Shown piece after piece: positions 2,154-32,711 of a stretch of DNA of 64,000 nucleotides. Origin of the DNA: an uncultured Candidatus Saccharibacteria bacterium (GTDB taxonomy: Bacteria > Patescibacteriota > Saccharimonadia > CAILAD01 > GCA-016700035); assembly GCA_964583675.1 (NCBI GenBank), contig CAZOVH010000001.1, forward strand, positions 17,754-81,753, given 5' to 3'. Both the position numbers and the translations under genes were made by a program. Position 1 is the stretch's first letter, and the number at the start of each line of letters is the position of its first letter. The notes under the pieces are model-generated. The model saw only the letters and a program-made list of their open reading frames with translations. It was not told the DNA's origin and did no database searches.

Positions 2154-4082
2154 TTACTGTTGGATCTGAGTTTCAAGCTCTTGGGCTGGCTGATACTTCG
2201 GCGAAAGTAAGCGGGCCCGAGCCAGCGATTGTGCAGCTGCTGCCTGATCTCCAGATTCTAGCTGCAGCTGAGCCTGCAAAGTCAGTGCAATTGCTACCCT
2301 ATCGGCAATATTTACAAAACTGCGGTTTGCAATGACTTCGTCGCTGTATTCTTGCGTGATACCACCTAATACCTCTAAAGCCTCCTGCGTAAAGCCTTCT
2401 TGCGCCAAGAGCTGTGCATAGCTTATCTGATACTGTGGGTTATTAAATGGATCAAGCTCAACCGCACGACGATATGCAGCTAGAGCCTCAGAGGTCTTAC
2501 CGAGCCGCTCACTGGCATTCCCTAACGCGTACCAATGGCGGGCATCGCGTGGCTCACGACGGGTTGCCTCGGTAGCTAAACGCGCCGCTCGCTCAGCATA
2601 TTTTGGCTGCGGGGTTTCTTCCGCATCATACATATCCACCCAAAACAGTGCGGCCTGCGACAAAGTATCTGGCGGCACCACTGGTGTCTGCAAGAGCGCT
2701 TCGTATCGCTCACCAGCTTCCTGCATATCATATGGTGCCACCACATCAATATAGGCCTGATCGACCCTTGAAAGATACAGCTGATATGTAAACCAGGTAG
2801 CAAACAGCATAACTAGTGCAGCTAGGCCAAACCCCGTCATAGCACGGCGATCTTTCAGCCGGAATTCACCATGCTCTTTCGGGATTGGCACCGCCAAAGC
2901 AGCCAGCACAAGAAAGATTATTATGAGCGTGGGATAGTTTGTGGCCAAATCAACAAAGCTATGCAACGCAACAACAATCAGGGCAATTCGGCTTGCCCAT
3001 ATAACTGGCGAGCGCTTTAGTGCACGCTCCTTCCAAAAATAACCAATTGAGGCGGCAACAATTACAAGAAACGCTACAAAACCAACCGCGCCTAGCTCCA
3101 CTAAAATCTGCACAGGTAATGAATGTGGGTTATTAGTAGCGGTTACAGCACTACGCTGAAAAGCCGGATGCACTTCTTTATATGTGCCCACTCCCCAACC
3201 AAGTACCGGCTTTTCGGCAAACATCGCCGTTCCCTCACGCCAAAAATCAATGCGGTCTGCCACACTTTGCGATTGGGCAGAATCTGAAAGCCGACTAGCC
3301 ACCGCTACAACCGGCTTCTCAAGATAAGTTCGCGCGCTAGTTGCTGCCAGACCAAGTGCCACGGATGCCACTGCTACACCGGCCAAAATCACAGCAGCTC
3401 GTTTACGTTGCTCCGAGCGCCACCAGAGAAGTCCGACGAGCACCAAAGCGATAAGCCAAGCAGCGCGTGAGTACGTTACAAAAAATGCTGTTCCCAATAA
3501 TAGCGACACATATACCCATACGCTCGGCCGGTCTTCGCTGTGTCGAATAGCCAAATCCAAACTAAACGGCAATGCCGCAAGTAAATATGTAGCAAACGGA
3601 TTTGGCCAGAAGAACAGCGAGGTTGCCCGCTCGTAATCTCCAACGAGATACATACCCAGACCAATGGCACTCACCACCACCGCTACCAGCAAGAAAATCT
3701 TTACTAAGAAGCCCCGAGCCCGAGCACTACGAAACACATCTCGTGCCACTACAAATACAATTGAGGCACTCATGATAGTGACCAGCGCAAGGATTGACTC
3801 AAACTGACTCACTGACCACAGCAAGCTAATAAAGGCCGTGACTACCAGCACTAGCCCCGGCACCATTACCCAACGCGGACGCAAGCTAATAGCTAAGGCT
3901 CGATCACGCGATAAGAGTACCCAGCTCACCAGCAGTAAAAGACTTAGCCCCGATTGTACGACTAGCCCAAAAGGATCACGCCCACCAATAAACCATGGCA
4001 CCATGAGTAGCGAAAGGAACAAAACTGGTAGCACCAGCTCTCGCGACAACTCCAACCGCTTTTTTGCAAGTCCCCCAAACAT
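2154..4082 (-). CDS. O-antigen ligase (Wzy_C)-like polytopic membrane protein with C-terminal TPR repeats
   Basis: 642 aa with about 10 TM helices. A Wzy_C-like signature is present (NPHSLPVQILVELGAVGF). The C-terminal roughly 200 aa is TPR-like (AYRRAVELDPFNNPQYQISYAQLLAQEG). Confidence 0.6.
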   Translation of the reverse strand: MFGGLAKKRLELSRELVLPVLFLSLLMVPWFIGGRDPFGLVVQSGLSLLLLVSWVLLSRDRALAISLRPRWVMVPGLVLVVTAFISLLWSVSQFESILALVTIMSASIVFVVARDVFRSARARGFLVKIFLLVAVVVSAIGLGMYLVGDYERATSLFFWPNPFATYLLAALPFSLDLAIRHSEDRPSVWVYVSLLLGTAFFVTYSRAAWLIALVLVGLLWWRSEQRKRAAVILAGVAVASVALGLAATSARTYLEKPVVAVASRLSDSAQSQSVADRIDFWREGTAMFAEKPVLGWGVGTYKEVHPAFQRSAVTATNNPHSLPVQILVELGAVGFVAFLVIVAASIGYFWKERALKRSPVIWASRIALIVVALHSFVDLATNYPTLIIIFLVLAALAVPIPKEHGEFRLKDRRAMTGFGLAALVMLFATWFTYQLYLSRVDQAYIDVVAPYDMQEAGERYEALLQTPVVPPDTLSQAALFWVDMYDAEETPQPKYAERAARLATEATRREPRDARHWYALGNASERLGKTSEALAAYRRAVELDPFNNPQYQISYAQLLAQEGFTQEALEVLGGITQEYSDEVIANRSFVNIADRVAIALTLQAQLQLESGDQAAAAQSLARARLLSPKYQPAQELETQIQQ

Positions 4083-4162: not shown

Positions 4163-5074
4163 ATGTTTTCAGATTATCTCGCCGAATTTCTTGATGCCCT
4201 CGAGCTAGAGCGTGGCCGTAGCCTTAAAACCATCGAGAATTACAGCCATTACCTCAATCGCTTTTACGAATACGCCGGCGATATTCAGGTGGCAAAAATC
4301 AACGACAAAACGATTGCCGGCTGGCGCAAATGGCTGAATCGACTGAGGCTCGATGATGGCCGCAGCGTAAGCATCACCACGATTAACTATCATTTAATAG
4401 CCATGCGCTCTTTCCTAAAGTACCTAGCCCGCCAAGATGTGGAATCACTCCCCCCAGAGCGCATCGAGCTGGCAAAAGCCGCTCGTCCACAAGTAGCATT
4501 TTTGGATGCCGAAGAAGTCGCAAGACTTGTAGAAGCAGTGTCCGGCAATGATCTAGCTGGCAAACGCGATCGAGCTATGGTGCTGCTCCTCTTTTCTGGC
4601 GGCCTACGCGTTTCAGAGCTAGTTAGCCTCAATCGAGACGACGTCAACACAGCTCGAGGCGAATTTACCATTCGTGGTAAAGGGCAAAAAGATCGTCCCG
4701 TATTCCTCTCCGAGCTGGCCTCAGGATCGCTCAACGAGTACCTCGCTCTGCGCAAAGATAAAGATGATGCGCTCTTCATCCACCTAGCTCACAAAAAATC
4801 TGATGAATCCAACGAAACTGCCAGACTCACACCGAGGAGTGTACAGCGCATTATCGAGCGTGGCAGAGTAGCTGCAGGAATCACCAAGCGCGTAACTCCC
4901 CACACATTGCGTCACTCCTTCGCAACCGACCTACTTTCCCATGGCGCAGACCTCAGGAGCGTACAAGAGCTTCTGGGCCACGCTAACGTTGCAACCACAC
5001 AAGTGTATACCCATATAACTAACCCCAAGCTCAAAGAAGTTCACCAAAAGTTCCACTCCGATAATCAAAAATAG
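4163..5074 (+). CDS. Tyrosine site-specific recombinase, XerC/XerD family
   Basis: 303 aa. C-terminal catalytic motifs are present (HTLRHSFATDLLSHGADLRSVQELLGHANVATTQVYTHI). These include the catalytic Tyr and the R...HxxR residues. Core-binding domain at the N-terminus. Confidence 0.85.
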   Translation: MFSDYLAEFLDALELERGRSLKTIENYSHYLNRFYEYAGDIQVAKINDKTIAGWRKWLNRLRLDDGRSVSITTINYHLIAMRSFLKYLARQDVESLPPERIELAKAARPQVAFLDAEEVARLVEAVSGNDLAGKRDRAMVLLLFSGGLRVSELVSLNRDDVNTARGEFTIRGKGQKDRPVFLSELASGSLNEYLALRKDKDDALFIHLAHKKSDESNETARLTPRSVQRIIERGRVAAGITKRVTPHTLRHSFATDLLSHGADLRSVQELLGHANVATTQVYTHITNPKLKEVHQKFHSDNQK

Positions 5075-5109: not shown

Positions 5110-6477
5110 CTATACGTCTTGGTCGGTGGTACCACAGTCGTTCTTACCAGCATCGGCATTTGGCTGCTTGCTACCTACACCAGTTGCCGGATCAGATGCC
5201 CAACGATAATCTGGTGCTCCACGATAGTCACGGTAGATGCGCATATTCTTACAAATATCAGCGCCGGAGAAAATTGCATTGTCGAACACGCCATCATATA
5301 CGGTTGGAACAAGCTGCTTCTTAGCGAGTACGCGGCGGAAGTAGTCACCCGAACGAGCCGTTACGTCAATGGTGGCGTTACCATCCGGCATGTATACCGG
5401 CGTTACCCTATCGGCGGCGTAAAAACGAATGCGATAGCTAGCAGAGTTGTAACGTGGGCGAACACGTAAGAACATAGTACTATTCTCAAAGTTGGCAGTA
5501 GAGCTACTATCATAATACACATTAGTAGTGCCATTATTTATTTCAGTCCTGGCCAAGTTAGCCAAATCATACAGCGAGCCGTCACTATTCTTCATCGTGC
5601 AGCTATACTCTACAGTTGCAGAATTGGTACAGTCGGTTCGCACAAAGCTTTGCAATGCACCAGGGTCAATCTGGCCACCGCCATCCTTTGCAGCATCTAC
5701 ATAGGTACTATTTGGGTAGGTAGCGGTGTTCCAAGGAGAAAAGTCTGAGTAATTACAGCCGGCAGTCGGGCAAGCCGGTGATGCAATTACCGTACGCACT
5801 GGGAACACTCCTGCAAGTCCACCTTGATTAATGGTTGCCTTATTCACTTGTCCTGCATTATTACTGCCAAACCAGGTAGATGTAACTTCGAGCGCAGCTG
5901 CCCCCTGCCACACAGGCGAGTCAGGATTATAGGTTGGCAACCAGCTTGAGAGCCTGTTAATGAGCACCTGAGAAGCCGGTGCATCAGCTGCATCGCGAGG
6001 ATCATTCCACTCTATAGACATGTAGCGAGCCTGCAAATACGGTGCGGTCTCATCGGGACCAGAGCGCCCCCTGCCCAGGTTCAGACTTAAGCTTTCATCA
6101 ACATCAAGCTGACCGGTAAGCTCATCTTGCACCACGGTAACCGTACGGCAAGTCCAGGCCACATCTGGCCCGGTTGACGGATCAGACACACGTACTTCTG
6201 TGCCACTGTTTGAGGCATTGCAAGTAGACTCTCTAAACTTTGGATCATCACCCAACCTACGTACAGCATCCTCTACACCAGCCTCCGCCGCATAGAGCGC
6301 ACGGTTTGCATTATCTGAATTGATAGACTGGCGGATTTCTCGAGTTGCAATGGTAGTAATACCGACAAATAACACAACAAGAATGGCGGAAACCGCGATT
6401 GTCGTTATCAGGGCTGCCGAACCTTGCTGTCGACGCTGCAAAATTTTCCTCACTCTATGAACCATAACTGTTTTCAT
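5110..6477 (-). CDS. Type IV pilus PilX-N-like minor pilin / pilus-associated protein (455 aa)
   Basis: N-terminus RRQQGSAALITTIAVSAILVVLFVGITTIATREIRQS resembles the PilX_N hydrophobic segment. The extracellular part is large, rich in N/T/S and has several Cys. It is the last gene of the pilus array. Confidence 0.55.
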   Translation of the reverse strand: MKTVMVHRVRKILQRRQQGSAALITTIAVSAILVVLFVGITTIATREIRQSINSDNANRALYAAEAGVEDAVRRLGDDPKFRESTCNASNSGTEVRVSDPSTGPDVAWTCRTVTVVQDELTGQLDVDESLSLNLGRGRSGPDETAPYLQARYMSIEWNDPRDAADAPASQVLINRLSSWLPTYNPDSPVWQGAAALEVTSTWFGSNNAGQVNKATINQGGLAGVFPVRTVIASPACPTAGCNYSDFSPWNTATYPNSTYVDAAKDGGGQIDPGALQSFVRTDCTNSATVEYSCTMKNSDGSLYDLANLARTEINNGTTNVYYDSSSTANFENSTMFLRVRPRYNSASYRIRFYAADRVTPVYMPDGNATIDVTARSGDYFRRVLAKKQLVPTVYDGVFDNAIFSGADICKNMRIYRDYRGAPDYRWASDPATGVGSKQPNADAGKNDCGTTDQDV

Positions 6478-6508
6478 GCTACCCTTTTAGACTGCAGAAT
6501 GCAATAAG

Positions 6509-7165
6509 TTAGTCATTTCTCGAAATTACGACCGACTGCAACATTGTCCCCGCCCCAAACTGATCGGAAACTGCCGCCGTTGAATTCTTTGATGGCGCTG
6601 TTGCCCCACGGAATACCCCAATGCGCACCTGCCAAACCACTGGCCCAATGCCTCCAGTAGTCGCAACTTGCGAAATCTTAAATGGAGCAGTATCTGGAGC
6701 AATACCATCGTCAGTGCTGGTATCCGGCCACAGATTTGGTGCAAGCTTTTCTGACCACACATCCGAGCTTGTAACCAGCACTGCTTGGGAGAAATCCGTA
6801 CAACTTGTGGAGCGCACTAGAACATAATGTTGACGGTTTGGATCCGGAATATACCCTAGCCCATAGCCCACATTTTGACCTCCTGTATCCAGACAGTGCA
6901 AAGCCAATACCGGCCGCGTCCCATATGAAGGGGCGGTGACTGGTTTAGTAACACGAATTGTCTGTCGCAAGTCTCGCGTGAGTGCATCCATTGCTTTTCG
7001 CGCCTCTTCTTGAGTTCTAGTAAGGCTTTGGGCTTTATTATAAATACCAAAAATACCAATAAAGCCAATCAGGCACATGAGCACTATCGCTGTGTACAAT
7101 GCAATCGAAAAAGTAAGTTCGAGCAATGTGTAGCCACCACGTTTCCGATGTAGCACTCTCTTCAT
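6509..7165 (-). CDS. Type IV minor pilin / pseudopilin (prepilin-type N-terminus)
   Basis: 218 aa. N-terminus MKRVLHRKRGGYTLLELTFSIALYTAIVLMCL fits the class III signal (G|YTLLE with Glu+5) plus a hydrophobic helix. Confidence 0.65.
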   Translation of the reverse strand: MKRVLHRKRGGYTLLELTFSIALYTAIVLMCLIGFIGIFGIYNKAQSLTRTQEEARKAMDALTRDLRQTIRVTKPVTAPSYGTRPVLALHCLDTGGQNVGYGLGYIPDPNRQHYVLVRSTSCTDFSQAVLVTSSDVWSEKLAPNLWPDTSTDDGIAPDTAPFKISQVATTGGIGPVVWQVRIGVFRGATAPSKNSTAAVSDQFGAGTMLQSVVISRND

Positions 7166-7779
7166 TATCGTGGCTCCGTAATTATGGTACTTGCAGTCGC
7201 ATTACTAGCAATACCGTTAGCATCTGTCCAGGTGGCACGAACAACAAATGTTATGGCTGATATATTTGTATCATTTGGCAATGAACTACCCGCGCTAATG
7301 GGATTTGTACCTGGAAAACCCTCCATAAAATATGATTCCGGAACTATCTCAATATCAAACTCACCGGCAGAAGCTACGTTTACATTTGCACCAACTGGCT
7401 TAATGTTTTCTAATGCTCCGTCCTGAACAACAAACTTACACTCATTTATCGTACCAGGTGCGGCCGTTGATTGATCGCAGGCAAACTCGTTCGGAATTAT
7501 CGAACCGTCCGCCTGCTCAAGACCTATATTAATCACAGACTTACCACTTACATCGTTTATAAACCTATCCCAATCAAAGTTTTCTGTCTCGCGATATGCC
7601 TTGATTGCCTCTATCGATTGCTGGATCATATACTGAGCTTGCGTTCGTTGATTGGCAGCAGTAGCATTGCGCCATGCACCAAGCGCTGCTGCATATGCCA
7701 AGGTCAGGACTGTACTCACAATAGCCATAGCAAAAATAATTTCTACGAGAGTCATTCCTTGTCTACGTCGCATCATCAT
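7165..7779 (-). CDS. Type IV minor pilin (prepilin-type N-terminus)
   Basis: 204 aa. N-terminus MMMRRRQGMTLVEIIFAMAIVSTVL gives G|MTLVE with Glu+5. Start and stop overlap the flanking pilin genes. Confidence 0.65.
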   Translation of the reverse strand: MMMRRRQGMTLVEIIFAMAIVSTVLTLAYAAALGAWRNATAANQRTQAQYMIQQSIEAIKAYRETENFDWDRFINDVSGKSVINIGLEQADGSIIPNEFACDQSTAAPGTINECKFVVQDGALENIKPVGANVNVASAGEFDIEIVPESYFMEGFPGTNPISAGSSLPNDTNISAITFVVRATWTDANGIASNATASTIITEPR

Positions 7780-8718
7780 CTACCTCGTCACCAACGTAGT
7801 GGTACCATCCACTAAATTAAAGTTAATCTCAGCCTTAAAACGAGGCTCTCCGGGAGATCCAGCTTTTCGCTCAACGCTTCCAAAGCGCCACAGCACCGCA
7901 CATGGCTGACTACGTAAACGTGTAGCGGCACTTGGAGAAACTGATCCATATTGATAACTTGCATCATCGTAACTCCCCAGCCAAGCGGGCGTCGGCGAAG
8001 ATGCTGTGCCAGACCACCATGGTTTCGCTCCATTAAAGACCCCCGTTGTGTCGAATGTAGAGACATTTGCATTTGGCCAAAAAGTATTATATCCACCCGT
8101 GGTGCGCCTAAAAACCACTAACGACTCGTTAGTAGCACTCCTAAAATCTTGGTATCCTGCCGACGATCCAGATAAAGTTTCTGGTAAGTTTCTCCAGGGG
8201 CTATATGCACCTGTAGTGCACTGTCCATCTCCAAAAACCGTAAATCCCTCTAGTTTTAGAGTGGCTGGCAACTCAACTTCTTTATTCGCATAACTTGTCA
8301 CGAGCAGAGATTGCAAAGGCGCTAAATCCGACTCTTTATCTTTCTTCAAATAAAATATCTTAAGTTTAGTAAATGTATCACCGGTATTTGGCACAGAAAT
8401 CGCAACAGCGGTACCAAAAACTTCTTCACCCTTACCAATTACACATTTGTCTAAACCTATCTCTCTATCTTCATTATTGCAAACAGATGCACTGCCGAGA
8501 TCATATCCAGGCACCTGGCTAGAAGTATTCTGACTTTGTACTTCTCGTATGCGAGACTCTACCTGACGCACTTCATTATAAAAATCCGAGCTCTTTTGAG
8601 TGTCAAACCATGCGAAAGCCCCACCAATCATCAAGCTGGCGATACCCAAAACCATAATGACTTCTACTAAGGAAACACCAGATTGAGTGCGTCGAATTTG
8701 TTTGTGCGGTATCTTCAT
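7780..8718 (-). CDS. Type IV minor pilin (prepilin-type N-terminus)
   Basis: 312 aa. N-terminus RRTQSGVSLVEVIMVLGIASLMIGGAFAW gives G|VSLVE with Glu+5, followed by a large globular domain. Confidence 0.6.
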   Translation of the reverse strand: MKIPHKQIRRTQSGVSLVEVIMVLGIASLMIGGAFAWFDTQKSSDFYNEVRQVESRIREVQSQNTSSQVPGYDLGSASVCNNEDREIGLDKCVIGKGEEVFGTAVAISVPNTGDTFTKLKIFYLKKDKESDLAPLQSLLVTSYANKEVELPATLKLEGFTVFGDGQCTTGAYSPWRNLPETLSGSSAGYQDFRSATNESLVVFRRTTGGYNTFWPNANVSTFDTTGVFNGAKPWWSGTASSPTPAWLGSYDDASYQYGSVSPSAATRLRSQPCAVLWRFGSVERKAGSPGEPRFKAEINFNLVDGTTTLVTR

Positions 8719-8760
8719 AAAAATAATTCTGATTCGACTATCAGTATACCACTTATGCTA

Positions 8761-9561
8761 TTAGACGAATATTCCTAAATACCAGTTTAAAAGAGCTTCA
8801 CCAAAGAAGAATCCAGCGAATAATCCAATTATAAGAAATGGACCAAACGCAATCATGCTCTTGCGGGTTTTTTTATGTATGGCAATTAGCGCCAAACCGA
8901 TGATTGCGCCTAGGTTAAAGGCCACAAATATAGCCACTACCAATTGGACTCCAGTTAGTACCAGTCCCATTATTGCAGCTAGCCAAATATCTCCGTCGCC
9001 TATCCAAGTTCCCTTTGATATGAGCCAGACTAAAAAGAAGGCTCCCCCGAATAACAACGCTGCCACAAGTCGAGCGATAAGCTCCGACAGGCTCCCCATG
9101 CCAACAGCGCTCAATATTGCTAACGCAAGCGCAAACACCACCGCCGGCACCATAAAAGCATCCGGGAGTAACATCCACTTAGCATCATACACAAGCGCGG
9201 CCAGCAACAGTGATGCTAGCGCAAGCCAAGCTAGTAAGCTCACCCACTCCAGCGTATTCGCTGGATCAAGATAGAAAAATAGACTCACCCATACAGTAGC
9301 GTTTGCGAGCTCTACCGCCGGGTACTGCCAAGAAATTGGCTTATGGCACGTGCGGCATTTCCCGCGCAGAGCCAGCCATGAGAACACTGGAATTAGCTCA
9401 TACCACCTAAGCGGGGTTTTACAATGTGGACACATGCTGCGGCCCTTGGAGACCTTTCTATGCGTGTGGAGGCGCCACACCCAGGCATTCAAGAACGAGC
9501 CTACTAGTAAGCCATACACAAAGACCATTACGGCCAGCATTAGTATCCACTCAGTCTCCAT
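8761..9561 (-). CDS. pilD: Prepilin peptidase (A24 family) PilD
   Basis: 266 aa polytopic protein. The N-terminus carries the tetra-Cys motif typical of PilD (CPHCKTPL...CRTCHKPI). The core is Asp-containing and hydrophobic. Confidence 0.85.
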   Translation of the reverse strand: METEWILMLAVMVFVYGLLVGSFLNAWVWRLHTHRKVSKGRSMCPHCKTPLRWYELIPVFSWLALRGKCRTCHKPISWQYPAVELANATVWVSLFFYLDPANTLEWVSLLAWLALASLLLAALVYDAKWMLLPDAFMVPAVVFALALAILSAVGMGSLSELIARLVAALLFGGAFFLVWLISKGTWIGDGDIWLAAIMGLVLTGVQLVVAIFVAFNLGAIIGLALIAIHKKTRKSMIAFGPFLIIGLFAGFFFGEALLNWYLGIFV

Positions 9562-9595
9562 TCCTCACATTATATGGCAAAGCATAACTAATAAC

Positions 9596-9620
9596 CAAAA
9601 AGCCCCCGAAGGGGCTATTG
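9596..9620 (-). terminator. Rho-independent terminator downstream of pilA
   Basis: On the minus strand this reads aatAGCCCCttcgGGGGCTttttgg. A 6-bp GC-rich stem with a 4-nt loop is followed by a T-tract. It lies between the pilA stop (9639) and the pilD start (9561). Confidence 0.7.
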
Positions 9621-9638
9621 GCTGTTCAATTAATTGGA

Positions 9639-10049
9639 TTAGTTATTAATTGAATAGTTGGTTCCTGTAGACTCAAGACAGGACTGAACAGTAATCGGAG
9701 TAGTACTGCTGATTGAGATGCTACCAGTTGTGGGAGTACAGGCTGCTGGAGCGCCAGTTGTAGCAGTCAACGTTATAACTAGCCCATTGGTTGTAGTTGG
9801 GTTAGCAGTCCAGCCCAAGTAGGTCTGCAACTGCGCAGCATTTGTTGGAGCTGTTCCGTTGTTATTCCCTTGAAAAGCAGTTGCTGATGCAAGAACACGT
9901 GCAGCAACATCCTTACGAGTATTGTCTCTTTGGCTACGTTGAGCACCCTGCACTGCAAGGAATACAACAACCATAATCAAAGCAGCAATTGCGAGCACAA
10001 TCACGATTTCGATCAAGGTAAATCCTTTTTTCATTTTTTTATCTGTCAT
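9639..10049 (-). CDS. pilA: Type IV major pilin PilA
   Basis: 136 aa. The N-terminus MTDKKMKKGFTLIEIVIVLAIAALIMVVVFLAV is a classic class III prepilin signal (G|FTLIE). It has its own promoter, RBS and terminator. Small size and position upstream of pilD are typical for the major subunit. Confidence 0.85.
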   Translation of the reverse strand: MTDKKMKKGFTLIEIVIVLAIAALIMVVVFLAVQGAQRSQRDNTRKDVAARVLASATAFQGNNNGTAPTNAAQLQTYLGWTANPTTTNGLVITLTATTGAPAACTPTTGSISISSTTPITVQSCLESTGTNYSINN

Positions 10050-10076
10050 AAGACCTCCTTATAATATTCGCGCTCT

Positions 10077-10104
10077 AGTATAACGCTTATGCTTATGATA
10101 GCAA
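10077..10104 (-). promoter_or_regulatory. Candidate sigma70-type promoter for pilA
   Basis: Minus strand reads TTGCTA, a 16-nt spacer, then TATACT, about 20 nt upstream of RBS AAGGAGG (10054..10060) and ATG (10049). It sits in the 74-nt gap between pilC and pilA. Confidence 0.45.
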
Positions 10105-10122
10105 ATCCATGCTCAACGTCAA

Positions 10123-11367
10123 CTAGTTCGTAGTTGTACTCGAGGCGCCCGAAGGGTTCCCCAGGTCCTGGCCTACAAGGTTGTATACAGGGTATAGAAT
10201 ACCAATAATCATCAGTACAACCATACCGCCCATCACAACTATTAATGCTGGCTCAATAATCGTAGAAATATTTTTCACCGCTTGATCTACTTCGTTCTCA
10301 TAGAAGCTTGCCAAACGATCCAACATTTCGCTCATCGTACCAGAGTCTTCTCCTACCTTAATCATCTGACTCACTAATGGTAGGAAGTACTCTGTTTTTT
10401 GTAATGCCTCCGAAAGTGCTCGCCCAGATTTCACCTCTTCAGCCAATATCTCCACTTCTGCTTTGAGTATTTCATTATTGAGACTATCTGAAACCAACTT
10501 AAGCGATTCTAAAATTGGTATACCACTAGCAACGAGACTCCCCAGCGTACGCGCAAATCGTGCCATATACATCTTAATGAACAATTGATTTGCTGGGGGC
10601 ATGGTAATCTTAGCCCGTGCGATATTCTTTTTCCCTGTAGGTGTCCTGAAATAAGACATAATCCCATAAATGATTGCTGCTACTGCTGGGAGTGTGATGA
10701 ACCACCACTTCGTAATCAAATCAGACATAAACATCAATGCGGATGTTATCCATGGCAAAGGCTTATTGAAGCTCTTATACAGCTCGGCAATTTGTGGTAC
10801 AACGCTCGTCATCATAAAGCCCATAACGAGCAAGATTACAACCATCACAATCGCTGGATAAATTAAGGCGCCTTTTACTTTTGAAGTAATTTCCGCTTCT
10901 TTCTCAAGCTGAAGCGCTAGCCGCTCCATAGTTATTTCTAGGTTACCACTGGCTTCACCAGCCTGGACCATGGAGACATAAATAGTATTAAAATTCTCAG
11001 GAAATTGGGCTAATGACTCCGAAAAGGATGTACCCCCTTCAACGGACTTTGAAAGCTTGAAGATAACCGCCTTCATACGTTTATCTTCAACCTGGCTCAT
11101 GGATGAGTTCAAGGCAGAAGCGACTGGTAGGCCAGCCTTAATCAGCGTAGCCATCTGGCGCGTAAAGACAACTTTGTGCTTAGTTTTAACCTTGCCAGTT
11201 GTTGACGTTGTAGAAAACGCCGACGTCTTCTTTGGCTTCATCTCCAAAGGATAAAGATCCTGCTTTAAAAGCAGCTTACCGGCAGCCATCTCATTATCGG
11301 CCTGAATCGACCCGACTATAATACGTCCGGTAGTTTTATCTTTAGCTTTATATTGAAAATCTAGCAT
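10123..11367 (-). CDS. pilC: Type IV pilus platform protein PilC (GspF family)
   Basis: 414 aa with two GspF-like repeats and three TM segments. Located between pilT and pilA. Confidence 0.85.
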   Translation of the reverse strand: MLDFQYKAKDKTTGRIIVGSIQADNEMAAGKLLLKQDLYPLEMKPKKTSAFSTTSTTGKVKTKHKVVFTRQMATLIKAGLPVASALNSSMSQVEDKRMKAVIFKLSKSVEGGTSFSESLAQFPENFNTIYVSMVQAGEASGNLEITMERLALQLEKEAEITSKVKGALIYPAIVMVVILLVMGFMMTSVVPQIAELYKSFNKPLPWITSALMFMSDLITKWWFITLPAVAAIIYGIMSYFRTPTGKKNIARAKITMPPANQLFIKMYMARFARTLGSLVASGIPILESLKLVSDSLNNEILKAEVEILAEEVKSGRALSEALQKTEYFLPLVSQMIKVGEDSGTMSEMLDRLASFYENEVDQAVKNISTIIEPALIVVMGGMVVLMIIGILYPVYNLVGQDLGNPSGASSTTTN

Positions 11368-11382
11368 CTATTTATAGTTAAC

Positions 11383-12642
11383 CTAATGTCGCATTAAGCG
11401 ATCAAGCTCCTCAAGATTTACGGCGTAATTCTTAGCCTCTTCATAGCTAATCTTGCCTTCGTGGATATAGTGTGCAAGGGTAGCGTCCATCGACTGCATA
11501 CCATATTCGGCACCGGTCTGAATAACCGCGTCTAGCTGGTGGGTCTTGCCTTCACGAATAATGTTACGCACAGCCGGTGTGACCACCAAAATTTCCGCAA
11601 CCGCCATACGACCACCACCAATCATCGGGATAAGACGCTGGGCTACAATCCCCTGCAACACACTCGCAAGCTGAATGCGGATTTGCTGCTGCTGATGTGG
11701 AGGAAACACGTCTACCATACGGTCGATTGACTGCGCAGCTGAGTTGGTGTGCAATGTCGCAAACACCAAGTGACCAGTTTCTGCCACCGTAATAGCCGTA
11801 GAGATTGTTTCCAGGTCGCGCATCTCACCAATTAACACGACATCTGGGTCTTCACGCAAACTCGAGCGAAGTGCCGAGGCAAAGCTCTTGGTATCAAAGT
11901 GAACTTCGCGCTGTACCACAATCGATTTCTTGTGATGGTGCTGATATTCGATTGGATCTTCGATGGTAATAATGTGCATGGCGCGCTCACGGTTTACCTT
12001 ATCGAGCATTCCGGCAAGCGTTGTAGACTTACCCGAACCCGTTGGGCCAGTTACGAGTACGAGGCCGCGCGGAAATTCAGTAAGTTTGTTCATAATTGGC
12101 GGCAGGCCAAGATCTTCTACAGTGCGAATTTTATTAGGAATGAGACGAAATGCCGCTGCTGGATTCCCTTTTTCGTGGAAAGCATTAACGCGAAAACGAC
12201 CAAGATCACCGTAAGCAAAGGAGAAGTCGATTTCCTTATCTTTAAGGTAAACCTCTTTTTGTTCGTCATCCAAAAGGCTAAAGATAATGTCATCAATATC
12301 TTCGGCGGTTAGAACTTTTTCACCCTGAATTGGAGCTAATGCACCATCAACACGCAGCATTGGCGGCAAACCAACTTGTACGTGAATATCTGAAGCATCA
12401 CGACGGATAACTTCTTCCAGATACGGCTCGATTGAAAGCTTACCAGAGTGCGGCGTTTGTTCAACTTGATGTACTTGATCGGTGGCGCTCACCTCCGCCG
12501 CCGGAGCTGGTGCAGCAACAGGAGCCGGCACCTGGGCTGGTGGAATTTGCGCAGCCGGCGGCACGCTCGATACCACCCCACCCACACCATCTACTGGTAT
12601 GCCGCTAGGTTGAGCTGGAGTTGTTGGGTCGGTCGGCTGCAT
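11383..12642 (-). CDS. pilT: Twitching-motility retraction ATPase PilT with a Pro/Ala-rich N-terminal extension
   Basis: 419 aa. Walker A GPTGSGKSTT is present, with Asp and His boxes typical of PilT/PilU. The N-terminal ~65 aa are rich in P/A/V/Q and look like an unusual extension. Confidence 0.85.
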   Translation of the reverse strand: MQPTDPTTPAQPSGIPVDGVGGVVSSVPPAAQIPPAQVPAPVAAPAPAAEVSATDQVHQVEQTPHSGKLSIEPYLEEVIRRDASDIHVQVGLPPMLRVDGALAPIQGEKVLTAEDIDDIIFSLLDDEQKEVYLKDKEIDFSFAYGDLGRFRVNAFHEKGNPAAAFRLIPNKIRTVEDLGLPPIMNKLTEFPRGLVLVTGPTGSGKSTTLAGMLDKVNRERAMHIITIEDPIEYQHHHKKSIVVQREVHFDTKSFASALRSSLREDPDVVLIGEMRDLETISTAITVAETGHLVFATLHTNSAAQSIDRMVDVFPPHQQQQIRIQLASVLQGIVAQRLIPMIGGGRMAVAEILVVTPAVRNIIREGKTHQLDAVIQTGAEYGMQSMDATLAHYIHEGKISYEEAKNYAVNLEELDRLMRH

Positions 12643-12663
12643 GATAATTCCTTTACTTATTCG

Positions 12664-14457
12664 CTAGTGATCGGTCGCTACGCGGGCCACTTCTTCTACT
12701 GTGGTCACGCCTGTAAGCGCCTTTAAATACCCATCTTGCTGCATGGTAAGCATTCCATCTTTGATGGCTTGAGTTTGAATGTCGTTGGTTGTTGCTCGAT
12801 TTAAGAGCAGCTTTTCCATCGCTGGATTCATTTCAAAAACCTCAAAGATACCGATGCGCCCCGAGTAACCTTCTTTGCACTCGTCGCAGCCTACCCCCTT
12901 ATACAAAGTATAAGCGTTTTGACTATACAGTGGCAAACCCTGGTAGCCATATTCTTGTTCCTTAGCCTGAACTTCCGCCTGATTTTTCGGTAAGAAAGGA
13001 CCAATAATTTTGTTGATTAACTCCACTGCTGTTCCTGGAGCGGCATAGGCTTGCTTACATTTTTGACACACGCGGCGAACCAGACGCTGACCAATTACCG
13101 TGTTTACCGTAGAAGCGATCAGAAAAGGTTCAATCTTCATATCAAGCATACGTGGAAGCACACCAGCGGCCGAGTTGGTGTGTAGCGTTGAAAGCACCGT
13201 GTGCCCCGTAAGTGCCGCTTGCACCGCAAGGTCGGCTGTTTCGGCATCACGAATTTCTCCCACAAGCACTACATTTGGGTCTTGACGCAGAATGGAGCGC
13301 AAGCCGTTCGCGAATGTCAGCCCGACGGCAGTATTTACCTGAATCTGGTTAATGCCTTCCATTTTATATTCCACCGGATCCTCGAGCGTCACAATATTAA
13401 TTGCAACAGACTTAATTGCGGCTACAACCGCGTACAGTGTCGTTGACTTACCAGAACCAGTCGGTCCGGTTGAGAGAATCATGCCGTGTGGTTTATGAAT
13501 ACCCGAGGTGATAAGCCTCAAACTGCGACCTCTAAACCCAAGTGTGTCCAAAGTAATGTTTTGAGCGTTCTTATCCAAAATACGGATAACCACCTGCTCG
13601 CCATAACTAATCGGCGCAATCGCAATACGCAAGTCCACTTCACGACCAGCAAACATATATACGGCCTGTCCGTCTTGCGGGATACGATGTTCGTCAATTT
13701 TGAGGTTTGAAAGAATTTTAATACGAGAAATAAGTGCCGCCTCAGTCGACTTTGGTAACGTCATCACTTCTTGCAAAATTCCGTCCACACGAAAACGGAT
13801 CTTCAACTCTTTTTGTCGTGGTTCAATATGAATATCTGATGCGCGCGAATTGATGGCATATTCTAAAATTGTGTTGAGCGCCCTGGTGATTGGCGCATCT
13901 TGCACAATGTCATTAATCTTTTTCTGATCCTGAACTGTTTTCTTTTCGGCTTCGACTTCTTCTTTTTGTGCCGAAGCGATATTTTTAAGCACCTCTGAGA
14001 CTTCTTGCGAAAACTTCTCTTTGTACATGCCGAGCACAAAATCGATGCCGGCCTGAGAAGCGATATACGGACTAATGGTGTAGCCAGTTTTACGCGAGAT
14101 AAAATCGATTGCCTGTAGGTTGGTTGGGTCTAGCAGTGCGACATTTAAGGCGTTGTTGGACACCCCAAATGGTACCGCCATGTACGTTTTTGCAATATCC
14201 AAAGGTACCATTTCTAGTATCTTTTGATCGACCGAATGCTCGAGATGCATGAGATCTACAAACGGTATCTTTTTAGCAATTGCAATCAGCTTAACCGAAT
14301 CATCTTCAGATAACGCCTTCATATCCAAAAGAACCTGCAAAAGCCCCTTATTTTCTTTAGCTGAGCGTAGCTTCGCAATCTCCAATACATCGTGCGGGAC
14401 TATACCTCCCTGCACAATCATATTCTCGATAATTTTTTGATTTTCTAGTGTGAGCAT
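12664..14457 (-). CDS. pilB: Type IV pilus assembly ATPase PilB (GspE family)
   Basis: 597 aa. N-terminal GSPII_E_N-like domain, Walker A GPTGSGKSTTL, and a tetra-Cys zinc motif (CQKCK...CDECKEG). Confidence 0.9.
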   Translation of the reverse strand: MLTLENQKIIENMIVQGGIVPHDVLEIAKLRSAKENKGLLQVLLDMKALSEDDSVKLIAIAKKIPFVDLMHLEHSVDQKILEMVPLDIAKTYMAVPFGVSNNALNVALLDPTNLQAIDFISRKTGYTISPYIASQAGIDFVLGMYKEKFSQEVSEVLKNIASAQKEEVEAEKKTVQDQKKINDIVQDAPITRALNTILEYAINSRASDIHIEPRQKELKIRFRVDGILQEVMTLPKSTEAALISRIKILSNLKIDEHRIPQDGQAVYMFAGREVDLRIAIAPISYGEQVVIRILDKNAQNITLDTLGFRGRSLRLITSGIHKPHGMILSTGPTGSGKSTTLYAVVAAIKSVAINIVTLEDPVEYKMEGINQIQVNTAVGLTFANGLRSILRQDPNVVLVGEIRDAETADLAVQAALTGHTVLSTLHTNSAAGVLPRMLDMKIEPFLIASTVNTVIGQRLVRRVCQKCKQAYAAPGTAVELINKIIGPFLPKNQAEVQAKEQEYGYQGLPLYSQNAYTLYKGVGCDECKEGYSGRIGIFEVFEMNPAMEKLLLNRATTNDIQTQAIKDGMLTMQQDGYLKALTGVTTVEEVARVATDH

Positions 14458-14474
14458 TTAATCAAGCGCTCCAC

Positions 14475-14726
14475 TTACAACGGATCTTCGCGACCACACG
14501 TTTCAGCAGTACACTGTTGAGGAGACGAATAGTCGTTATACCGCTCTAATTCTGTAAGCTTTTCCTGATCTTTTTGATCACTCAAAGGCACAGCAACTTT
14601 AGCGGGAACCTGAACATTAATACCCGTATCCTTAGGGGCTGGGGCAAGCTGTGTGTACAGCAGTACGCCCGTGATGGCAATGACTGCAACCGCAATTACA
14701 AGTCCGATAATATCTCTACGTTTCAT
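14475..14726 (-). CDS. Small single-pass membrane protein of the pilus operon (hypothetical)
   Basis: 83 aa. N-terminal TM helix (IIGLVIAVAVIAITGVLLY) is followed by a short soluble tail with two Cys. The start overlaps the pilO-like stop. Confidence 0.4.
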   Translation of the reverse strand: MKRRDIIGLVIAVAVIAITGVLLYTQLAPAPKDTGINVQVPAKVAVPLSDQKDQEKLTELERYNDYSSPQQCTAETCGREDPL

Positions 14727-15460
14727 TATTCGTACTTCCCTTTATCTGCTTCATACTCATCAATCTTCACCTCTTGAGCATTAATTGAAGGCTTAGGCAA
14801 AGCGTAAATCTTATACTGCATATCAAGAGTATACGTACCCTGGGAGCTGGTAATCTTCATTGTAGAAAAATCAAAGATACGAGCAGATGCCTCAAGCGCA
14901 GCGAGAAAACCAAGGACCGAATCTTGACTGCCAGTGGCCTTAACTGCAACCAAGCTGGACTTCGAACCAGTAGCAGGCGCTGTCGTACCGGCCGTTGTGC
15001 CCGCAGTAGCAGTGGCGCCAGCAGCTGTCGGCTTATTGATTGACTCAATGTCTACCTGATAATCGCTTTGTAGACGGTTGAAGATTGTAAGAATAGCCTC
15101 AAAGTCTTCGTCCTTAGGTAGCGTACGCTGAGTGATAAAATCAAACCTTGATGGACTATTACCCTCTGCCTGTTTCAGTTTCTGGATTTCCGGTTCGGCT
15201 TCCTCGAGCTTGGCTAATTTTACTTCGGAAAGCTTAACCTGGTATTCCTGAGCTCGCACTTCTAGCGCCTTACGAACATTTGCCTGAGCGAGTGTGTAGA
15301 TAAAGTATCCACCCACTAAAATAACTAGGACCGTAACGCCGATTGCGATGATAAGGTAATTTCGAATGCTCTGCATCGCAGCCTGTGTGCCTGGAGTCTC
15401 AGGCGGAGTCACCTTCTTTTTTGACGGTGGTTGTGGAGCGGCTTTTTTTGTCGGCGCCAT
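14726..15460 (-). CDS. PilO-like type IV pilus assembly protein
   Basis: 244 aa. Charged N-terminus, single TM (LIIAIGVTVLVILVGGYFIY), a coiled-coil segment, then a C-terminal globular domain. The stop/start overlaps pilN. Confidence 0.55.
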   Translation of the reverse strand: MAPTKKAAPQPPSKKKVTPPETPGTQAAMQSIRNYLIIAIGVTVLVILVGGYFIYTLAQANVRKALEVRAQEYQVKLSEVKLAKLEEAEPEIQKLKQAEGNSPSRFDFITQRTLPKDEDFEAILTIFNRLQSDYQVDIESINKPTAAGATATAGTTAGTTAPATGSKSSLVAVKATGSQDSVLGFLAALEASARIFDFSTMKITSSQGTYTLDMQYKIYALPKPSINAQEVKIDEYEADKGKYE

Positions 15461-16122
15461 TAGTTTGTCTCTCCACTTGTAGTAGATTCATTAGTAGTCT
15501 CTTTGTCTTCGCTCGACTTAGAATCCTCACGGAACTTCTTCACGAGCTTTTCATCTACCTTAAAAGTAACTTCAAAGTTAGCGTTATCGGTCTGCTTACG
15601 CTTTGTAACCGCCTGAACATCTACATCTGTAAATACCGGAACCCTATCAAAACCAGGAATGGGATTAAACTCAACATTGTAGGTTTTAAGCGCATTAATG
15701 AATAAAGCTACATTATTAAAATCTTTTGCCTCCACAGTAGCTTTCACTTTATAGTCCGGATCAACAGAGAGAGATGCTATACTAATGCCCTCAGGAGCAG
15801 CTTTAGCCAACTGACTAAAAAGCTGAGAAATAAGAATACGGTTATTTGAAAGTTTATCAGCTTCTGTAAGCGCAGCGTTAAACCAAGCAACATCTTGCTC
15901 GACATCCGCCTTACCAGCAATCTTCTGGTTCAACTCCTCAATGTTCCCCTTATTGGTTGCAAACTGAATATTACGGGCACCTAAGAGCAGTAAGAGAACC
16001 ACAAGAATAATACCTACACTACTACAGAGAACCAAACATACGACGGTAACTAAACGCTTAGTCTGCTGATTCTTCAGCTTTACCATGCGTGCTTCAGGAA
16101 GCAGGTTAATTCGAACCGACAT
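15460..16122 (-). CDS. pilN: Type IV pilus assembly protein PilN
   Basis: 220 aa. Begins MSVRINLLPEAR (PilN INLLP motif), then a TM helix and a periplasmic domain. Directly downstream of pilM. Confidence 0.7.
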   Translation of the reverse strand: MSVRINLLPEARMVKLKNQQTKRLVTVVCLVLCSSVGIILVVLLLLLGARNIQFATNKGNIEELNQKIAGKADVEQDVAWFNAALTEADKLSNNRILISQLFSQLAKAAPEGISIASLSVDPDYKVKATVEAKDFNNVALFINALKTYNVEFNPIPGFDRVPVFTDVDVQAVTKRKQTDNANFEVTFKVDEKLVKKFREDSKSSEDKETTNESTTSGETN

Positions 16123-16125
16123 CGC

Positions 16126-17163
16126 CTACACCATGTTCCTTAGCGCTAATCCAACTGCAGTCGAGTAGCCCAAAGCCATACCTGACAAACGATCGGTAAA
16201 CTCGGTTGCATAACTAATTTTCTGCCATGGATTTCCCATCTCAACCGGCAAGCCGAGTGCGTTCGCGAGATACACAGGCATTTCTGGGATGGATGCCGGA
16301 CCACCGGTAATAACAACTTTTTCCACTTTGCGTCCAGGATTGCTTTGGTAAAAGAATTCCATCGAGCGCTTAATTTCTTCTACGACATTATCAAGCAATG
16401 GCTTCATGGAGCGATATACTTGTCCTTCTAGCTTTGTCTGCGTGAGACCAAACTTACGCACAAATTGTTCAGCCTGGGCTTCGTCCAAACCAAGGTTTTG
16501 TGAGGTAACGCGAATCAGTGACTTGGCGCCAACATTCACCGAGCGGATTAAGCCTGGCACTCCGGCAGAGATCAAGCCCATATCAGTCGTAAGAGACGCA
16601 AATTCAACAACCACTACATCGATATCGGCATTTGGCACCATCGATCGAGACTGGGCAATGGCGTTAATGTCCAAAGCCATAAGCTCTAAGCCAGCTTGCT
16701 GGAAAATGTTGAGATATTTATTAGCTACGCTGGTCGGCGTCGCCACCAAGAGCACATCAATCTCTTCGGCTTCTTTATCTTGAGAAATACGGAAGAAATC
16801 TAGCTTTACCTGATCAATCGGCATTGGGATATATTTGTCGGCCTGGAAGCGAATGGTGTGTGCAATTTCGTTATCGGCCATTTGTGGCAATTTCAAAACA
16901 CTCGCAAAAACTTTACTGGCCGGCAAGCCAGCTACAACATTCTTAGTACTTACGCGCGCATCGGAAACGAGCTTTTTTAAGACCTCCGCAACTCGAGCCT
17001 GATCGGCTGGAGCGTCAGAACTCATCAAGCCAAACGGTAACTCAATATCACCGTACGTGACGAGCGTCGGCTTATCATGAATGAGTTTTAGCTCAACGAG
17101 TCGAATCCCAGAATTTCCTAGGTCGACCCCAAAATAATGTTCGTCTTCGATGAATAAGTCCAT
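16126..17163 (-). CDS. pilM: Type IV pilus assembly protein PilM (actin-like ATPase fold)
   Basis: 345 aa. N-terminal FGVDLGNSGIRLVEL is the actin/FtsA-like phosphate-1 motif. Length and position ahead of pilN fit PilM. Confidence 0.8.
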   Translation of the reverse strand: MDLFIEDEHYFGVDLGNSGIRLVELKLIHDKPTLVTYGDIELPFGLMSSDAPADQARVAEVLKKLVSDARVSTKNVVAGLPASKVFASVLKLPQMADNEIAHTIRFQADKYIPMPIDQVKLDFFRISQDKEAEEIDVLLVATPTSVANKYLNIFQQAGLELMALDINAIAQSRSMVPNADIDVVVVEFASLTTDMGLISAGVPGLIRSVNVGAKSLIRVTSQNLGLDEAQAEQFVRKFGLTQTKLEGQVYRSMKPLLDNVVEEIKRSMEFFYQSNPGRKVEKVVITGGPASIPEMPVYLANALGLPVEMGNPWQKISYATEFTDRLSGMALGYSTAVGLALRNMV

Positions 17164-17234: not shown

Positions 17235-20200
17235 TCAGAATTTTGGCCGTGCAGTATTGTTGTAGTACTTAGCGGTATTTGTTGAGGCAGTAATATCTTC
17301 AAACCCAGGTGGCGGCATAAAGCTCGACAAGCCATTACCAACGATATCTTCCGCTGGTCCACCCGTGTAGTAGTTCTGCGGCCAACCAGCCCGATTCTCA
17401 AGCCAGTAGTAGTTGGTTGCACCCCTGTTACCTGGTGAGTCAAAATCCTTACGCTCACCCGACAAATTACACACTCGGCGAATACCTAAAACATCTGAGA
17501 GGTTACAGAACTTACCAAATTCCTGGAAAGCACCCCCCTCATTTACTCGCCATCGTTCGACCATGCCAGCAAAGTCCACGTAGTTTCGTCCGAACGTAAA
17601 GCCTTCCCCGCCAGTAACACTGCCCGTTATTCGTAGCTTATTCGAGCAACCGCTGGCAGTTACATTATCGGCACTCGGTGCTTCATCAATGTTAGGGTCT
17701 TCAGTTTCGGTAGCCAAAGGATTGGAATCCAGACTTAGCGCGCCACCTCGACGGATCCACTTAGATCCTGTCGTGCCGGGCTTATCTGTCTTTGCAGCAT
17801 CTTCGTTTAGGCCACCTTCTGCGATATACAGATCGCAAGTAATCACCTTACCGGCCGCATACAAAGATGCATCAATGCGGTCAACGTTACTGGCAATAAC
17901 AATGTTCTTCGCGGAAATAATACCCAAGTTTGGAAGCTTGTTGAGTCCGGCCATATCTGGCACTCCTGTCTTCTGGAAGGTATATGGCAAACTATTATCG
18001 GTCGGATATCTGGCTTCAATGTTGCCGGTAATATAGACCGTGTCGTCTGAAACTATCGTAGATCTGCCGGCGTTGTAGATGAAGCCACCTAGCTCCATGT
18101 TTGGCTCAGTAATCGCACCACTTCCACTTGTCTGCAACTTAAAGATGGTTGGACAAGGCCTTGGAGCATTGGTGTTCACTAGGTAAAGTCCCCTATCGGC
18201 CTGTGGTCCAGCATTATGAGTACCAAACGGCAAGTTACTATTTGAGTCTGGCCTGTCGCGCAGTAACCACAGGAGACTTGGGGTGTCGATTGGCGAACCT
18301 GGAGCCCAAGAACGGTAATATTTGGCAGGTGGAGACAATTCTTGCGGACCATCATCTACATCTGGTGTGGTGCCGGTATCGCTACATTGACCGTACTCGC
18401 TGTACGCCCGATTGGCAGCTGCAACCATCTGACTATTTTTGAGTTCTTTCTGGCCGTCGCCGTTCGAATCTTCCGCTTGCTCAATATTGAGATTCACGCT
18501 ATCAAAACTACAATTGCGAGATTTTTGCGGTGCGTTAGCCTCGGCTTGGCCATATGGATCGGAGGGCTGTGGAGCGGTTCTCTGCCCCTTCGCAAATCCA
18601 AGCATGTAAAAGTTAGTCGAACAGAAGTTTGAGCCACCCTTCTCGGCAGCTGCAGTAAACTGAGCATGCAAGTTGATTGCTGGCTTTGCATCGGCAGGAG
18701 CAGGCGCACTCTCGAAAGATCCCTTATATGGACTACCATTGGTGCGGTTCTCAGCCTTATATACGCCCCTTGCCGATTCTGGTTGGTTTTCGATTTCTCC
18801 AAGTGCAGTCACATTTCCGTTCTGTACACGCAGCCACGGCTTATAGCTCACCTTAATTTCGAAGTCGCCTTGACAGGCCGAGCCAAATATCTGGGTAAAT
18901 CCACCCTGGCTAGCGGGCTTTGCTTGGCGCATCTGGAAGCCAAGCACAAATTTTGTGCCACCATCTTTTGGCGGTGTCGGTATAATCTTAAAGGTGTAAC
19001 TACTGGCACCCGGGTTAAGAGCAACTGGAGTTACCTCATTTCCACCCTCGATTTGCCGCTGGACATCCGGTATGTACCAAGCTCGAGTATCGTATTGATT
19101 ATTGGTTACCAAAGTACCACCAGTTACGACGAGCTCATGATATGTACCTGGAACGGCACCATTATTATTACCGTCTCGGTAGCCCTGCTGCCAGAAACTC
19201 TCACCAGTATTCTGCATAGTAACTTCAATTTCGTTGGATTGTGGGTAGTCGGCATCCATTACCGATATTGCATCCAACTGATTCTCAAATCCCTGTTGGT
19301 CGCATACCGCGTCATTCCTACATTGGTGCATCAGGCCTGGGCTAGAAACTCGGCGCGGTGAGTACTTCCAACTGCCTCCGGCGTTGCCGAAATCGCGAGC
19401 GCCAGATGAATATCCAGCAACCAAGTCTGAGTCTACAGCTCCCGAGCTACTATCGCTAAAGCGCGCAAACATCTCAAACTGACGATCATCACCATCTTTT
19501 AATAAAATCCCGCCCTGGCCGTTATACTTCGGTATATTTACATCCACCCGATATGCATCAGGCCCACTTGTTTGAGTAGTGATCTCCATAATATCGTTGC
19601 CGGTAGAAGTCTCTGTACGCATTAAGTTACTATTGCCGTTAATTCTAAAGTAAGTCGTAACTGGACGCGATGGGTCCGGCATATAAACCAAATTAGCGGT
19701 ATATGTGTCGCACGTAAGCGCCTCATTAGTGAGCTTGAATTTTGGCGCGTAGTAGAATGTTTGCTCTCTAAAGTTCGTCCCCACTGGAACACCCATTGAG
19801 TACGTATTTACTCCAGCTGCACCAGAATCTTTACGATAACCACATGGGCCGTTACCTTGCGCATTTATGCCGTATTGCCCAGTAGTAGTGTTCCACTGTG
19901 GAAAGTATGCCCATCCGCCGGTTGGTATAAAGGCGCACTCACGTGGAGTGTTGCCACCTATATTCCAGCTCTCGGGAGACCCACCGGCACTCCAGCTATC
20001 TGCTCCCGGAGCACCAGACCACATAATAGTACAGTAATTCTGGCCATTTGGATCCACCGCTGCATTAGGGTTATTCACACCAATAATTGGAGTATAAATC
20101 GTCCACCACAAGAACTGACTAACTGCAGTAAACTCCGCCTTGCGTCGATGATTTAAGAGACAGCCCGATATGTCGGCATTTGGTGCAACACTCGATGAAC

Positions 20201-23569: not shown

Positions 23570-23647
23570 TCAACTCGTTTTAAAACGCTTATGTCTATCG
23601 TACCTGAGCCCCCAGGACTCTTCAAGGTATAAGCTGGAGAATATTTT

Positions 23648-32682: not shown

Positions 32683-32711
32683 CGCTCAACCTCCATTTTG
32701 AGAGCTAGAGG

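Follow-up and report, generated by a model that had tools for sequence, protein, structure and literature searches.

We analysed a window of 64,000 nt from a metagenome-assembled genome (MAG) of an uncultured Candidatus Saccharibacteria bacterium (assembly GCA_964583675.1, contig CAZOVH010000001.1, positions 17,754-81,753 of the forward strand) and found that window positions 5110-17163 hold 13 co-directional minus-strand open reading frames (ORFs) for a type IV pilus (T4P). With a probability of roughly 0.88, we read them as the standard 13-gene retractile T4P locus of Saccharibacteria (TM7), a phylum without an outer membrane; the locus would be an ortholog of T4P-1 (also T4P1) and resemble the type IVa pilus (T4aP). 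The same locus is already known from publications on cultured relatives, where it has also been tested genetically, making this an ordinary finding, textbook for the phylum. Slightly new are the family of an 83-amino-acid (83-aa) membrane protein, a clade-specific extension of PilT and the ORFs inserted between ychF and pilM.

The genes run in the order pilM, pilN, a divergent pilO, the 83-aa membrane protein, pilB, pilT, pilC, pilA, pilD, three minor pilins and a 455-aa PilX_N/GspK-like protein (Table 1). All 13 ORFs named in the initial annotation are present on the minus strand, and profile searches uphold their names. Its description of nearly every junction as a 0-4 nt overlap was overstated: the gaps at the 12 successive junctions are 3, -1, -1, 17, 21, 15, 73, 77, 42, 0, -1 and 31 nt, so that five lie within 3 nt and the others span 15-77 nt. 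The locus is compact and co-directional, not uniformly overlapping. Nearly every other gene of the window is also on the minus strand, GC skew is negative in all 2-kb bins and cumulative skew falls monotonically; strand bias and skew are consistent with a single replichore whose genes are co-oriented with replication. Scans of the 64 kb for tRNA genes and Rfam families gave no matches, and scans for tandem and dispersed repeats revealed nothing relevant.

Motor, alignment module and synteny

The retraction ATPase is central to the assignment. PilT clears the curated TIGR01420 cutoff, carries Walker A, Asp box, Walker B and His box motifs together with AVRNIIRE at 357 (an AIRNLIRE-type motif), and has no CxxC, zinc finger or MshEN domain; it is a genuine PilT and not a second PilB-like ATPase, the possibility against which it was to be checked. 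PilB has Walker A, Asp, Walker B and His boxes and a tetracysteine zinc site (CQKC464 and CDEC524), and scores 547 bits against TIGR02538, under the equivalog cutoff of 676. PilC matches the GspF and PilC models of NCBIfam over their full length, again under the cutoffs.

The PilM-PilN-PilO subcomplex is represented by PilM and PilN above curated cutoffs and by PilO through its family profile and orthologs only. PilN has a single predicted transmembrane (TM) helix near residue 21, and its gene starts 3 nt past the pilM stop. The 244-aa ORF that follows has no direct Pfam or NCBIfam match of its own. Using a profile built from 60 positional orthologs, we obtained a match to Myxococcus xanthus PilO (PDB 3jc8 chain O, E=1.5e-6); searched one by one, 35 of these orthologs matched Pfam PilO (PF04350). 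Because of these two results, we count the ORF, on sequence grounds, as a real but divergent PilO.

No ORF of at least 150 aa in the window matched Secretin (PF00263) or PilP in Pfam, and the leftover stretches hold short ORFs only, for example those of ribosomal proteins. An adjacent secretin, which the initial annotation had named as one of two refuting findings, was found neither within 5 kb downstream nor within 47 kb upstream of the locus. The claim that pilQ and pilP are missing from the 64 kb therefore stands, with the footnote that a small membrane protein, not a PilP, occupies the pilP position. In bacteria of the candidate phyla radiation (CPR), PilB, PilT, PilC, PilM, PilN, PilO and PilD are co-localised, PilQ is absent and there is no Gram-negative envelope (PMC6744442, 2019); the absence of PilQ has likewise been reported for one Microgenomates genome (PMC7143001).

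We searched with PilB and retrieved 80 genome loci (L001-L080); nearly all bear a Saccharibacteria or Saccharimonadales label, and PilB is 99% identical in the two best-matching ones. Comparison of all window proteins with these loci by tblastn revealed a phylum-wide order: ychF, then pilM-N-O-small ORF-B-T-C-A-D-minor pilins-large pilin, then a tyrosine recombinase on the opposite strand. This order is conserved over approximately 65-70 Saccharibacteria loci. The recombinase itself, a divergent XerC/D-like gene (window 4163-5074, plus strand), flanks nearly every examined Saccharibacteria locus (47-99% identity) and has a counterpart in Southlakia epibionticum, SEML1_0117; it is a phylum-wide synteny anchor. 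Four loci deposited in MAGs of other groups (L026, L028, L036 and L053, labelled Verrucomicrobiia, Dormiibacterota and Chlamydiae) carry a Saccharibacteria-type locus in which PilB has 53-54% identity, the gene order is unchanged and the small ORF is present; they are probably binning contamination.

Content, order and flanks also agree with T4P1 as published for S. epibionticum and for Nanosynbacter lyticus TM7x, as a comparison proposed at the outset revealed. In S. epibionticum, SEML1_0103-0117 comprise ychF (0103), PilM, a pair of hypothetical proteins folded like PilN and PilO, 0107, PilB, PilT, PilC, pilins, the peptidase, 0116 and the tyrosine recombinase 0117 (PMC10633639, Table S1/S2), and nearly all 13 genes of its T4P1 (SEML1_0104-0116) are class I essential (PMC10633639). 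Locus one of TM7x encodes PilC1, B1, T, M1, N1, O1, D and five pilins and produces an essential thick pilus that drives twitching, while locus two, which has no pilT, places RecAX among pilM2/N2/O2/B2/C2, has one pilin and produces T4P-2, a thin pilus for host binding (PMC11623550). In TM7i, an inhibitor of PilB stops the cells from twitching (PMC9894109). The earlier proposal of a secretin-less, PilT-containing T4P in a single-membrane cell, with Saccharibacteria as one candidate, is thus borne out by the source of the DNA, a Saccharibacteria MAG, and by synteny with the T4P1 loci.

Table 1. The 13 genes of the T4P locus and the two signals around pilA, in transcription order (window coordinates).
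Feature	Position	Strand	Length (aa)	Description and matches
pilM	16126..17163	-	345	cytoplasmic actin-like alignment protein; TIGR01175 197.7 bits (cutoff 133); PF11104 E=7e-47
pilN	15460..16122	-	220	bitopic alignment protein; PF05137 31.7 bits (cutoff 22.8)
divergent pilO	14726..15460	-	244	1-nt overlap with pilN stop
small protein	14475..14726	-	83	bitopic protein in the pilP position; Saccharibacteria-wide small family
pilB	12664..14457	-	597	extension ATPase; T2SSE PF00437 E=3e-128; MshEN PF05157 E=7e-13
pilT	11383..12642	-	419	retraction ATPase; TIGR01420 477.6 bits (cutoff 319.1)
pilC	10123..11367	-	414	platform; two T2SSF domains (PF00482), E=3e-63
promoter-like site	10095..10122	-		TTGACG-16-TATCAT with TG extension; upstream of pilA, in the 73-nt gap
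pilA	9639..10049	-	136	major pilin; N_methyl; TIGR02532 28.8 bits (cutoff 16.3)
terminator-like hairpin after pilA	9601..9616	-		AGCCCCTTCGGGGGCT followed by TTTTTGG; stem-loop AGCCCC-TTCG-GGGGCT
pilD	8761..9561	-	266	prepilin peptidase/N-methyltransferase; PF06750 (A24_N_bact) 107.6 bits and PF01478 (Peptidase_A24) 36.8 bits, both above cutoff
minor pilin (GspH/FimU-like position)	7780..8718	-	312	G/VSLVE; N_methyl 20.3 bits; weak GspH
minor pilin (GspI/PilV-like position)	7165..7779	-	204	G/MTLVE; TIGR02532 24.3 bits; weak GspI, XpsI, PilV
minor pilin (GspJ/PilW-like position)	6509..7165	-	218	G/YTLLE; weak GspJ, HpsC
large minor pilin (PilX_N/GspK-like, PilX1 position)	5110..6477	-	455	weak GspK, E=1e-3

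Pilins, pilA signals and divergence among relatives

PilA has the features expected of a major pilin: a short class III leader of 9 aa (MTDKKMKKG/FTLIE, with Gly-1, Phe+1 and Glu+5) and a C-terminal disulfide pair, Cys104 and Cys124; its GAST content is 43%. A six-frame motif scan of the 64 kb identified exactly four canonical prepilins of the form G/xxxxE, namely pilA and the ORFs of 312, 204 and 218 aa. At its start the 455-aa protein reads RRQQG/SAALI and has no Glu5. Within its family, Pfam matches are most often to PilX_N (16 of 33 members, best E=2e-6), and the window copy itself aligns to the PilX_N model end to end at E=0.29; with this reservation, the three prepilin-type minor pilins and the PilX-N-like protein described initially are upheld. 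AlphaFold2 (AF2) models the 455-aa protein (pLDDT 76) as a helix at 21-77 followed by a beta-rich body. Its positional ortholog in S. epibionticum, SEML1_0116, is a 385-aa GspK-like pilin with a galactose-binding-like domain (PMC10633639), and the 455-aa protein is a probable tip subunit.

The promoter, ribosome-binding site (RBS) and terminator hairpin previously ascribed to pilA could all be located, the promoter as a promoter-like consensus site only. An AAGGAGG RBS lies 6 nt 5' of the pilA ATG, and the hairpin has a dG of -18.4 kcal/mol (z=-3.6). Across the region, 13 promoter-like sites were found against 19.7 expected and 10 terminator-like sites against 11.2, neither class being enriched overall. 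Many related loci have comparable GC-rich hairpins 40-150 nt upstream of pilD. With no enrichment region-wide, support for the pilA signals comes from their position and from these similar hairpins just 5' of pilD in relatives.

PilD has seven predicted TM segments. Just past the recombinase, a 642-aa membrane protein (window 2154-4082, minus strand) combines a Wzy_C (O-antigen ligase-like) domain, approximately 11 predicted TM segments and a C-terminal TPR region; the closest loci and L011 also have it in this place, S. epibionticum does not. We speculate that it could serve as a PglL/TfpO-type O-oligosaccharyltransferase in an organism free of lipopolysaccharide. The PilA C-terminus is Ser/Thr-rich, and a prediction of O-glycosylation exists for PilA1 of TM7x. 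We found no literature linking Saccharibacteria Wzy_C proteins to pilin glycosylation.

Compared with the closest locus, L001, PilB, PilT and PilM are 99-100% identical and the pilins 45-66%. A strain-level swap of a pilin cassette was considered and rejected: the conserved genes are only 85-90% identical at the nucleotide level, which points to separate species with strongly purified motor genes. The contrast between pilins and motors is therefore a difference in rate between species. In a stretch at about 12200-12800, covering the 3' end of pilB and the 5' end of pilT, nucleotide identity to L001 reaches 96-99%, against 85-90% in the remaining conserved genes; the stretch may be an interspecies recombination tract.

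PilT has an N-terminal extension of approximately 70 aa that is Pro/Ala-rich and of low complexity (window 12433-12642, minus strand). It occurs only in the nine closest species (L001-L009), in frame, as a Pro/Ala/Thr-rich segment of 40-150 aa with a conserved DQVHQ(V/M) motif; neither the loci from L010 onward nor the 356-aa PilT of S. epibionticum has it.

Three ORFs of 1333, 347 and 1764 aa (window 17235-27649, minus strand) lie between ychF and pilM, which are directly adjacent in S. epibionticum. The 1764-aa protein, which has a signal peptide, and the 1333-aa protein, which has an N-terminal TM anchor, are paralogous (E=3e-37, 26% identity over approximately 770 aa) and share a PPPGFE C-terminus. 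These giant ORFs have no Pfam, NCBIfam or PDB matches, and a search of 5.8 billion proteins turned up just 7 homologs of the 1764-aa protein. They are probably fast-evolving surface proteins.

The small membrane protein between pilO and pilB

Of the related loci, 67 contain pilM as well as pilB, and in approximately 65 of these an ORF of 74-136 aa (below 100 aa in nearly all cases) lies between pilO and pilB and encodes an N-terminal TM helix. It abuts or overlaps the pilO stop, to which it is usually translationally coupled, and ends shortly 5' of pilB. In most clades the consensus reads ...VEVV..I...F..P...YFN....NPT..I.IG. By HHalign, the main version is homologous to the Nanosyncoccus-type one (probability 98%), and comparisons by hidden Markov model and HHalign join the version of the window clade to them via L010 and L011. 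Family members are annotated solely as 'hypothetical'. The S. epibionticum positional ortholog, SEML1_0107, is an unnamed 228-nt hypothetical gene scored as essential by transposon sequencing (PMC10633639).

PilP is a lipoprotein with a beta-sandwich HR domain, and the ORF at its position has neither feature. The 83-aa protein has no lipobox; its AF2 model consists of a confident TM helix and a low-confidence tail, with no folded domain. The Pfam scan of 60 orthologs gave no match to any family and none to PF04351 (PilP) at E<=1, and the profile search of the PDB gave no match for the family and no PilP chain at E<=10. Identification as PilP, CpaB or a pilin was thus rejected, since both searches returned TM-helix noise and the modelled tail was of low confidence. 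The protein sits in the pilP slot of pilMNOPQ but is no homolog of PilP.

The 83-aa protein is most likely an additional membrane subunit of the alignment complex. We further propose, tentatively and with somewhat less than even confidence, that this small single-TM protein is essential and dedicated to the Saccharibacteria T4P, as a subunit that other described T4P systems lack, and that it would fill the slot of the diderm PilP. Where a secretin is absent, it could cap the periplasmic module of PilN and PilO or anchor it to the wall.

Function, alternative readings and known systems

T4P are the best-supported organelles of host attachment and motility in Saccharibacteria and other CPR epibionts. 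In the mechanism that we propose for this locus, PilD would process the five pilins, and the four genes after pilD, in a GspH/I/J/K-like order, would supply a priming and tip complex. PilB would then polymerise PilA on the PilC platform, framed by PilMNO; the filament would cross the wall without a secretin, and PilT would depolymerise it, which would generate twitching and draw the epibiont onto the cell of its host. A strong promoter and RBS of its own would fit a high demand for the major pilin, while the terminator would limit read-through into pilD and the minor pilins. The domain content of each part is taken from the sequence; the steps follow the T4aP paradigm and the cultured relatives.

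Several points weigh against this reading. Retraction, twitching and host attachment are assigned here by orthology to studied relatives. PilB and PilC are family-level assignments below the NCBIfam equivalog cutoffs, and the correspondence of the minor pilins to H/I/J/K comes from sub-threshold matches and gene order. The absence of a secretin holds for the 64-kb window, and the pilA promoter is a consensus match of a kind that is not enriched in the region.

An alternative is that the locus mainly encodes a competence pilus, which would bind extracellular DNA and retract to feed it to ComEC, supplying nucleotides that the organism cannot make. DNA uptake has been proposed for CPR T4P (PMC6744442), Saccharibacteria are naturally competent and Vibrio-type competence uses a retractile, PilT-containing pilus (PMC10633639 and work cited there). 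However, S. epibionticum comEC mutants are viable while the T4P1 genes are essential, and the essentiality is thus unrelated to competence (PMC10633639). The gene content also argues against this role: the locus has PilMNO and PilT instead of a ComG-type operon, contains no comEA, comEC or dprA, and scores well under the cutoffs of the competence models (ComGA 262 bits, cutoff 300; ComGB 155, cutoff 240; ComGC 25.7, cutoff 75). We consider a mainly competence-related function unlikely, although DNA uptake may be a role alongside motility and adhesion.

It is far less probable still that the genes encode a pseudopilus secretion apparatus resembling a type II secretion system (T2SS) rather than a surface pilus. 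The best NCBIfam match of PilC is GspF (374.5 bits, cutoff 424), PilB matches GspE (541 bits, cutoff 630) and the minor pilins weakly match GspH/I/J/K in that order. Every such match is below its equivalog cutoff, as is that to GspG (23.6 bits, cutoff 88.9), and besides the PilM/N/O homologs there are no genes of GspD, GspC, GspL or GspM type. The T2SS has no PilT, and its defining task is transport through an outer membrane, a structure missing in CPR bacteria (PMC6744442). Moreover, pili have been seen on related cells, with long surface filaments of PilA orthologs reported for TM7x and TM7i (PMC11623550, PMC9894109).

A non-retractile adhesive pilus like the T4P-2 of TM7x, with PilT serving another system, has in its favour that TM7x has two T4P systems and pilT in one locus only (PMC11623550), but is scarcely credible for a locus in which pilT lies inside the operon, 21 and 15 nt from pilB and pilC, in which pilD, five pilins and pilT match locus one and not locus two (RecAX, one pilin, no pilT), and in a window whose recA-recX genes (32089-33797) adjoin no pil genes. 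A second T4P system beside recA-recX (minus strand) was separately considered and rejected, the neighbours being DUF520, RodZ-like and FtsK genes; the window contains no second pilus locus.

The retractile T4P1-type pilus thus remains our preferred reading, and the locus is one more environmental ortholog of a genetically characterised family. Its value is comparative: it documents the phylum-wide 13-gene order and sets fast-evolving pilins beside near-invariant motors between sister species. It also points to a small membrane protein that is conserved but has no name, and to the PilT extension peculiar to this lineage.

With the diderm T4aP of Pseudomonas aeruginosa and M. xanthus, the locus shares homologous PilM, N, O, B, T, C and D, a short-leader pilin with Phe1 and Glu5, and four minor pilins in the same order. 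It differs in having no PilQ, PilP, PilY1, TsaP or FimV and in gathering all genes at a single locus instead of several. With the T2SS it has in common a homologous ATPase, platform, peptidase and pseudopilin set in a GspH/I/J/K-like order (as weak matches), whereas the absence of GspD and GspC, the presence of PilT and the sub-cutoff scores of all Gsp equivalog models set it apart.

The T4aP-like pili of monoderms such as Clostridium perfringens and Streptococcus sanguinis comprise PilB/T/C/D, PilM/N/O and pilins without PilQ or PilP and power retractile motility (see Melville & Craig 2013, as cited in PMC6744442). Compared with these by description, the window has a different gene order and its host is an ultrasmall epibiont of another phylum; the Saccharibacteria-specific small ORF after pilO is not known to have a counterpart in these systems. 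Finally, the T4P1 loci of cultured Saccharibacteria (SEML1_0104-0116, TM7x_00415-00475 and that of TM7i) have the same 13-gene content and order, the same ychF and recombinase flanks and likewise no secretin. The window is distinguished from them by the three ORFs between ychF and pilM, the PilT extension and pilins that are very divergent even in comparison with the closest species.

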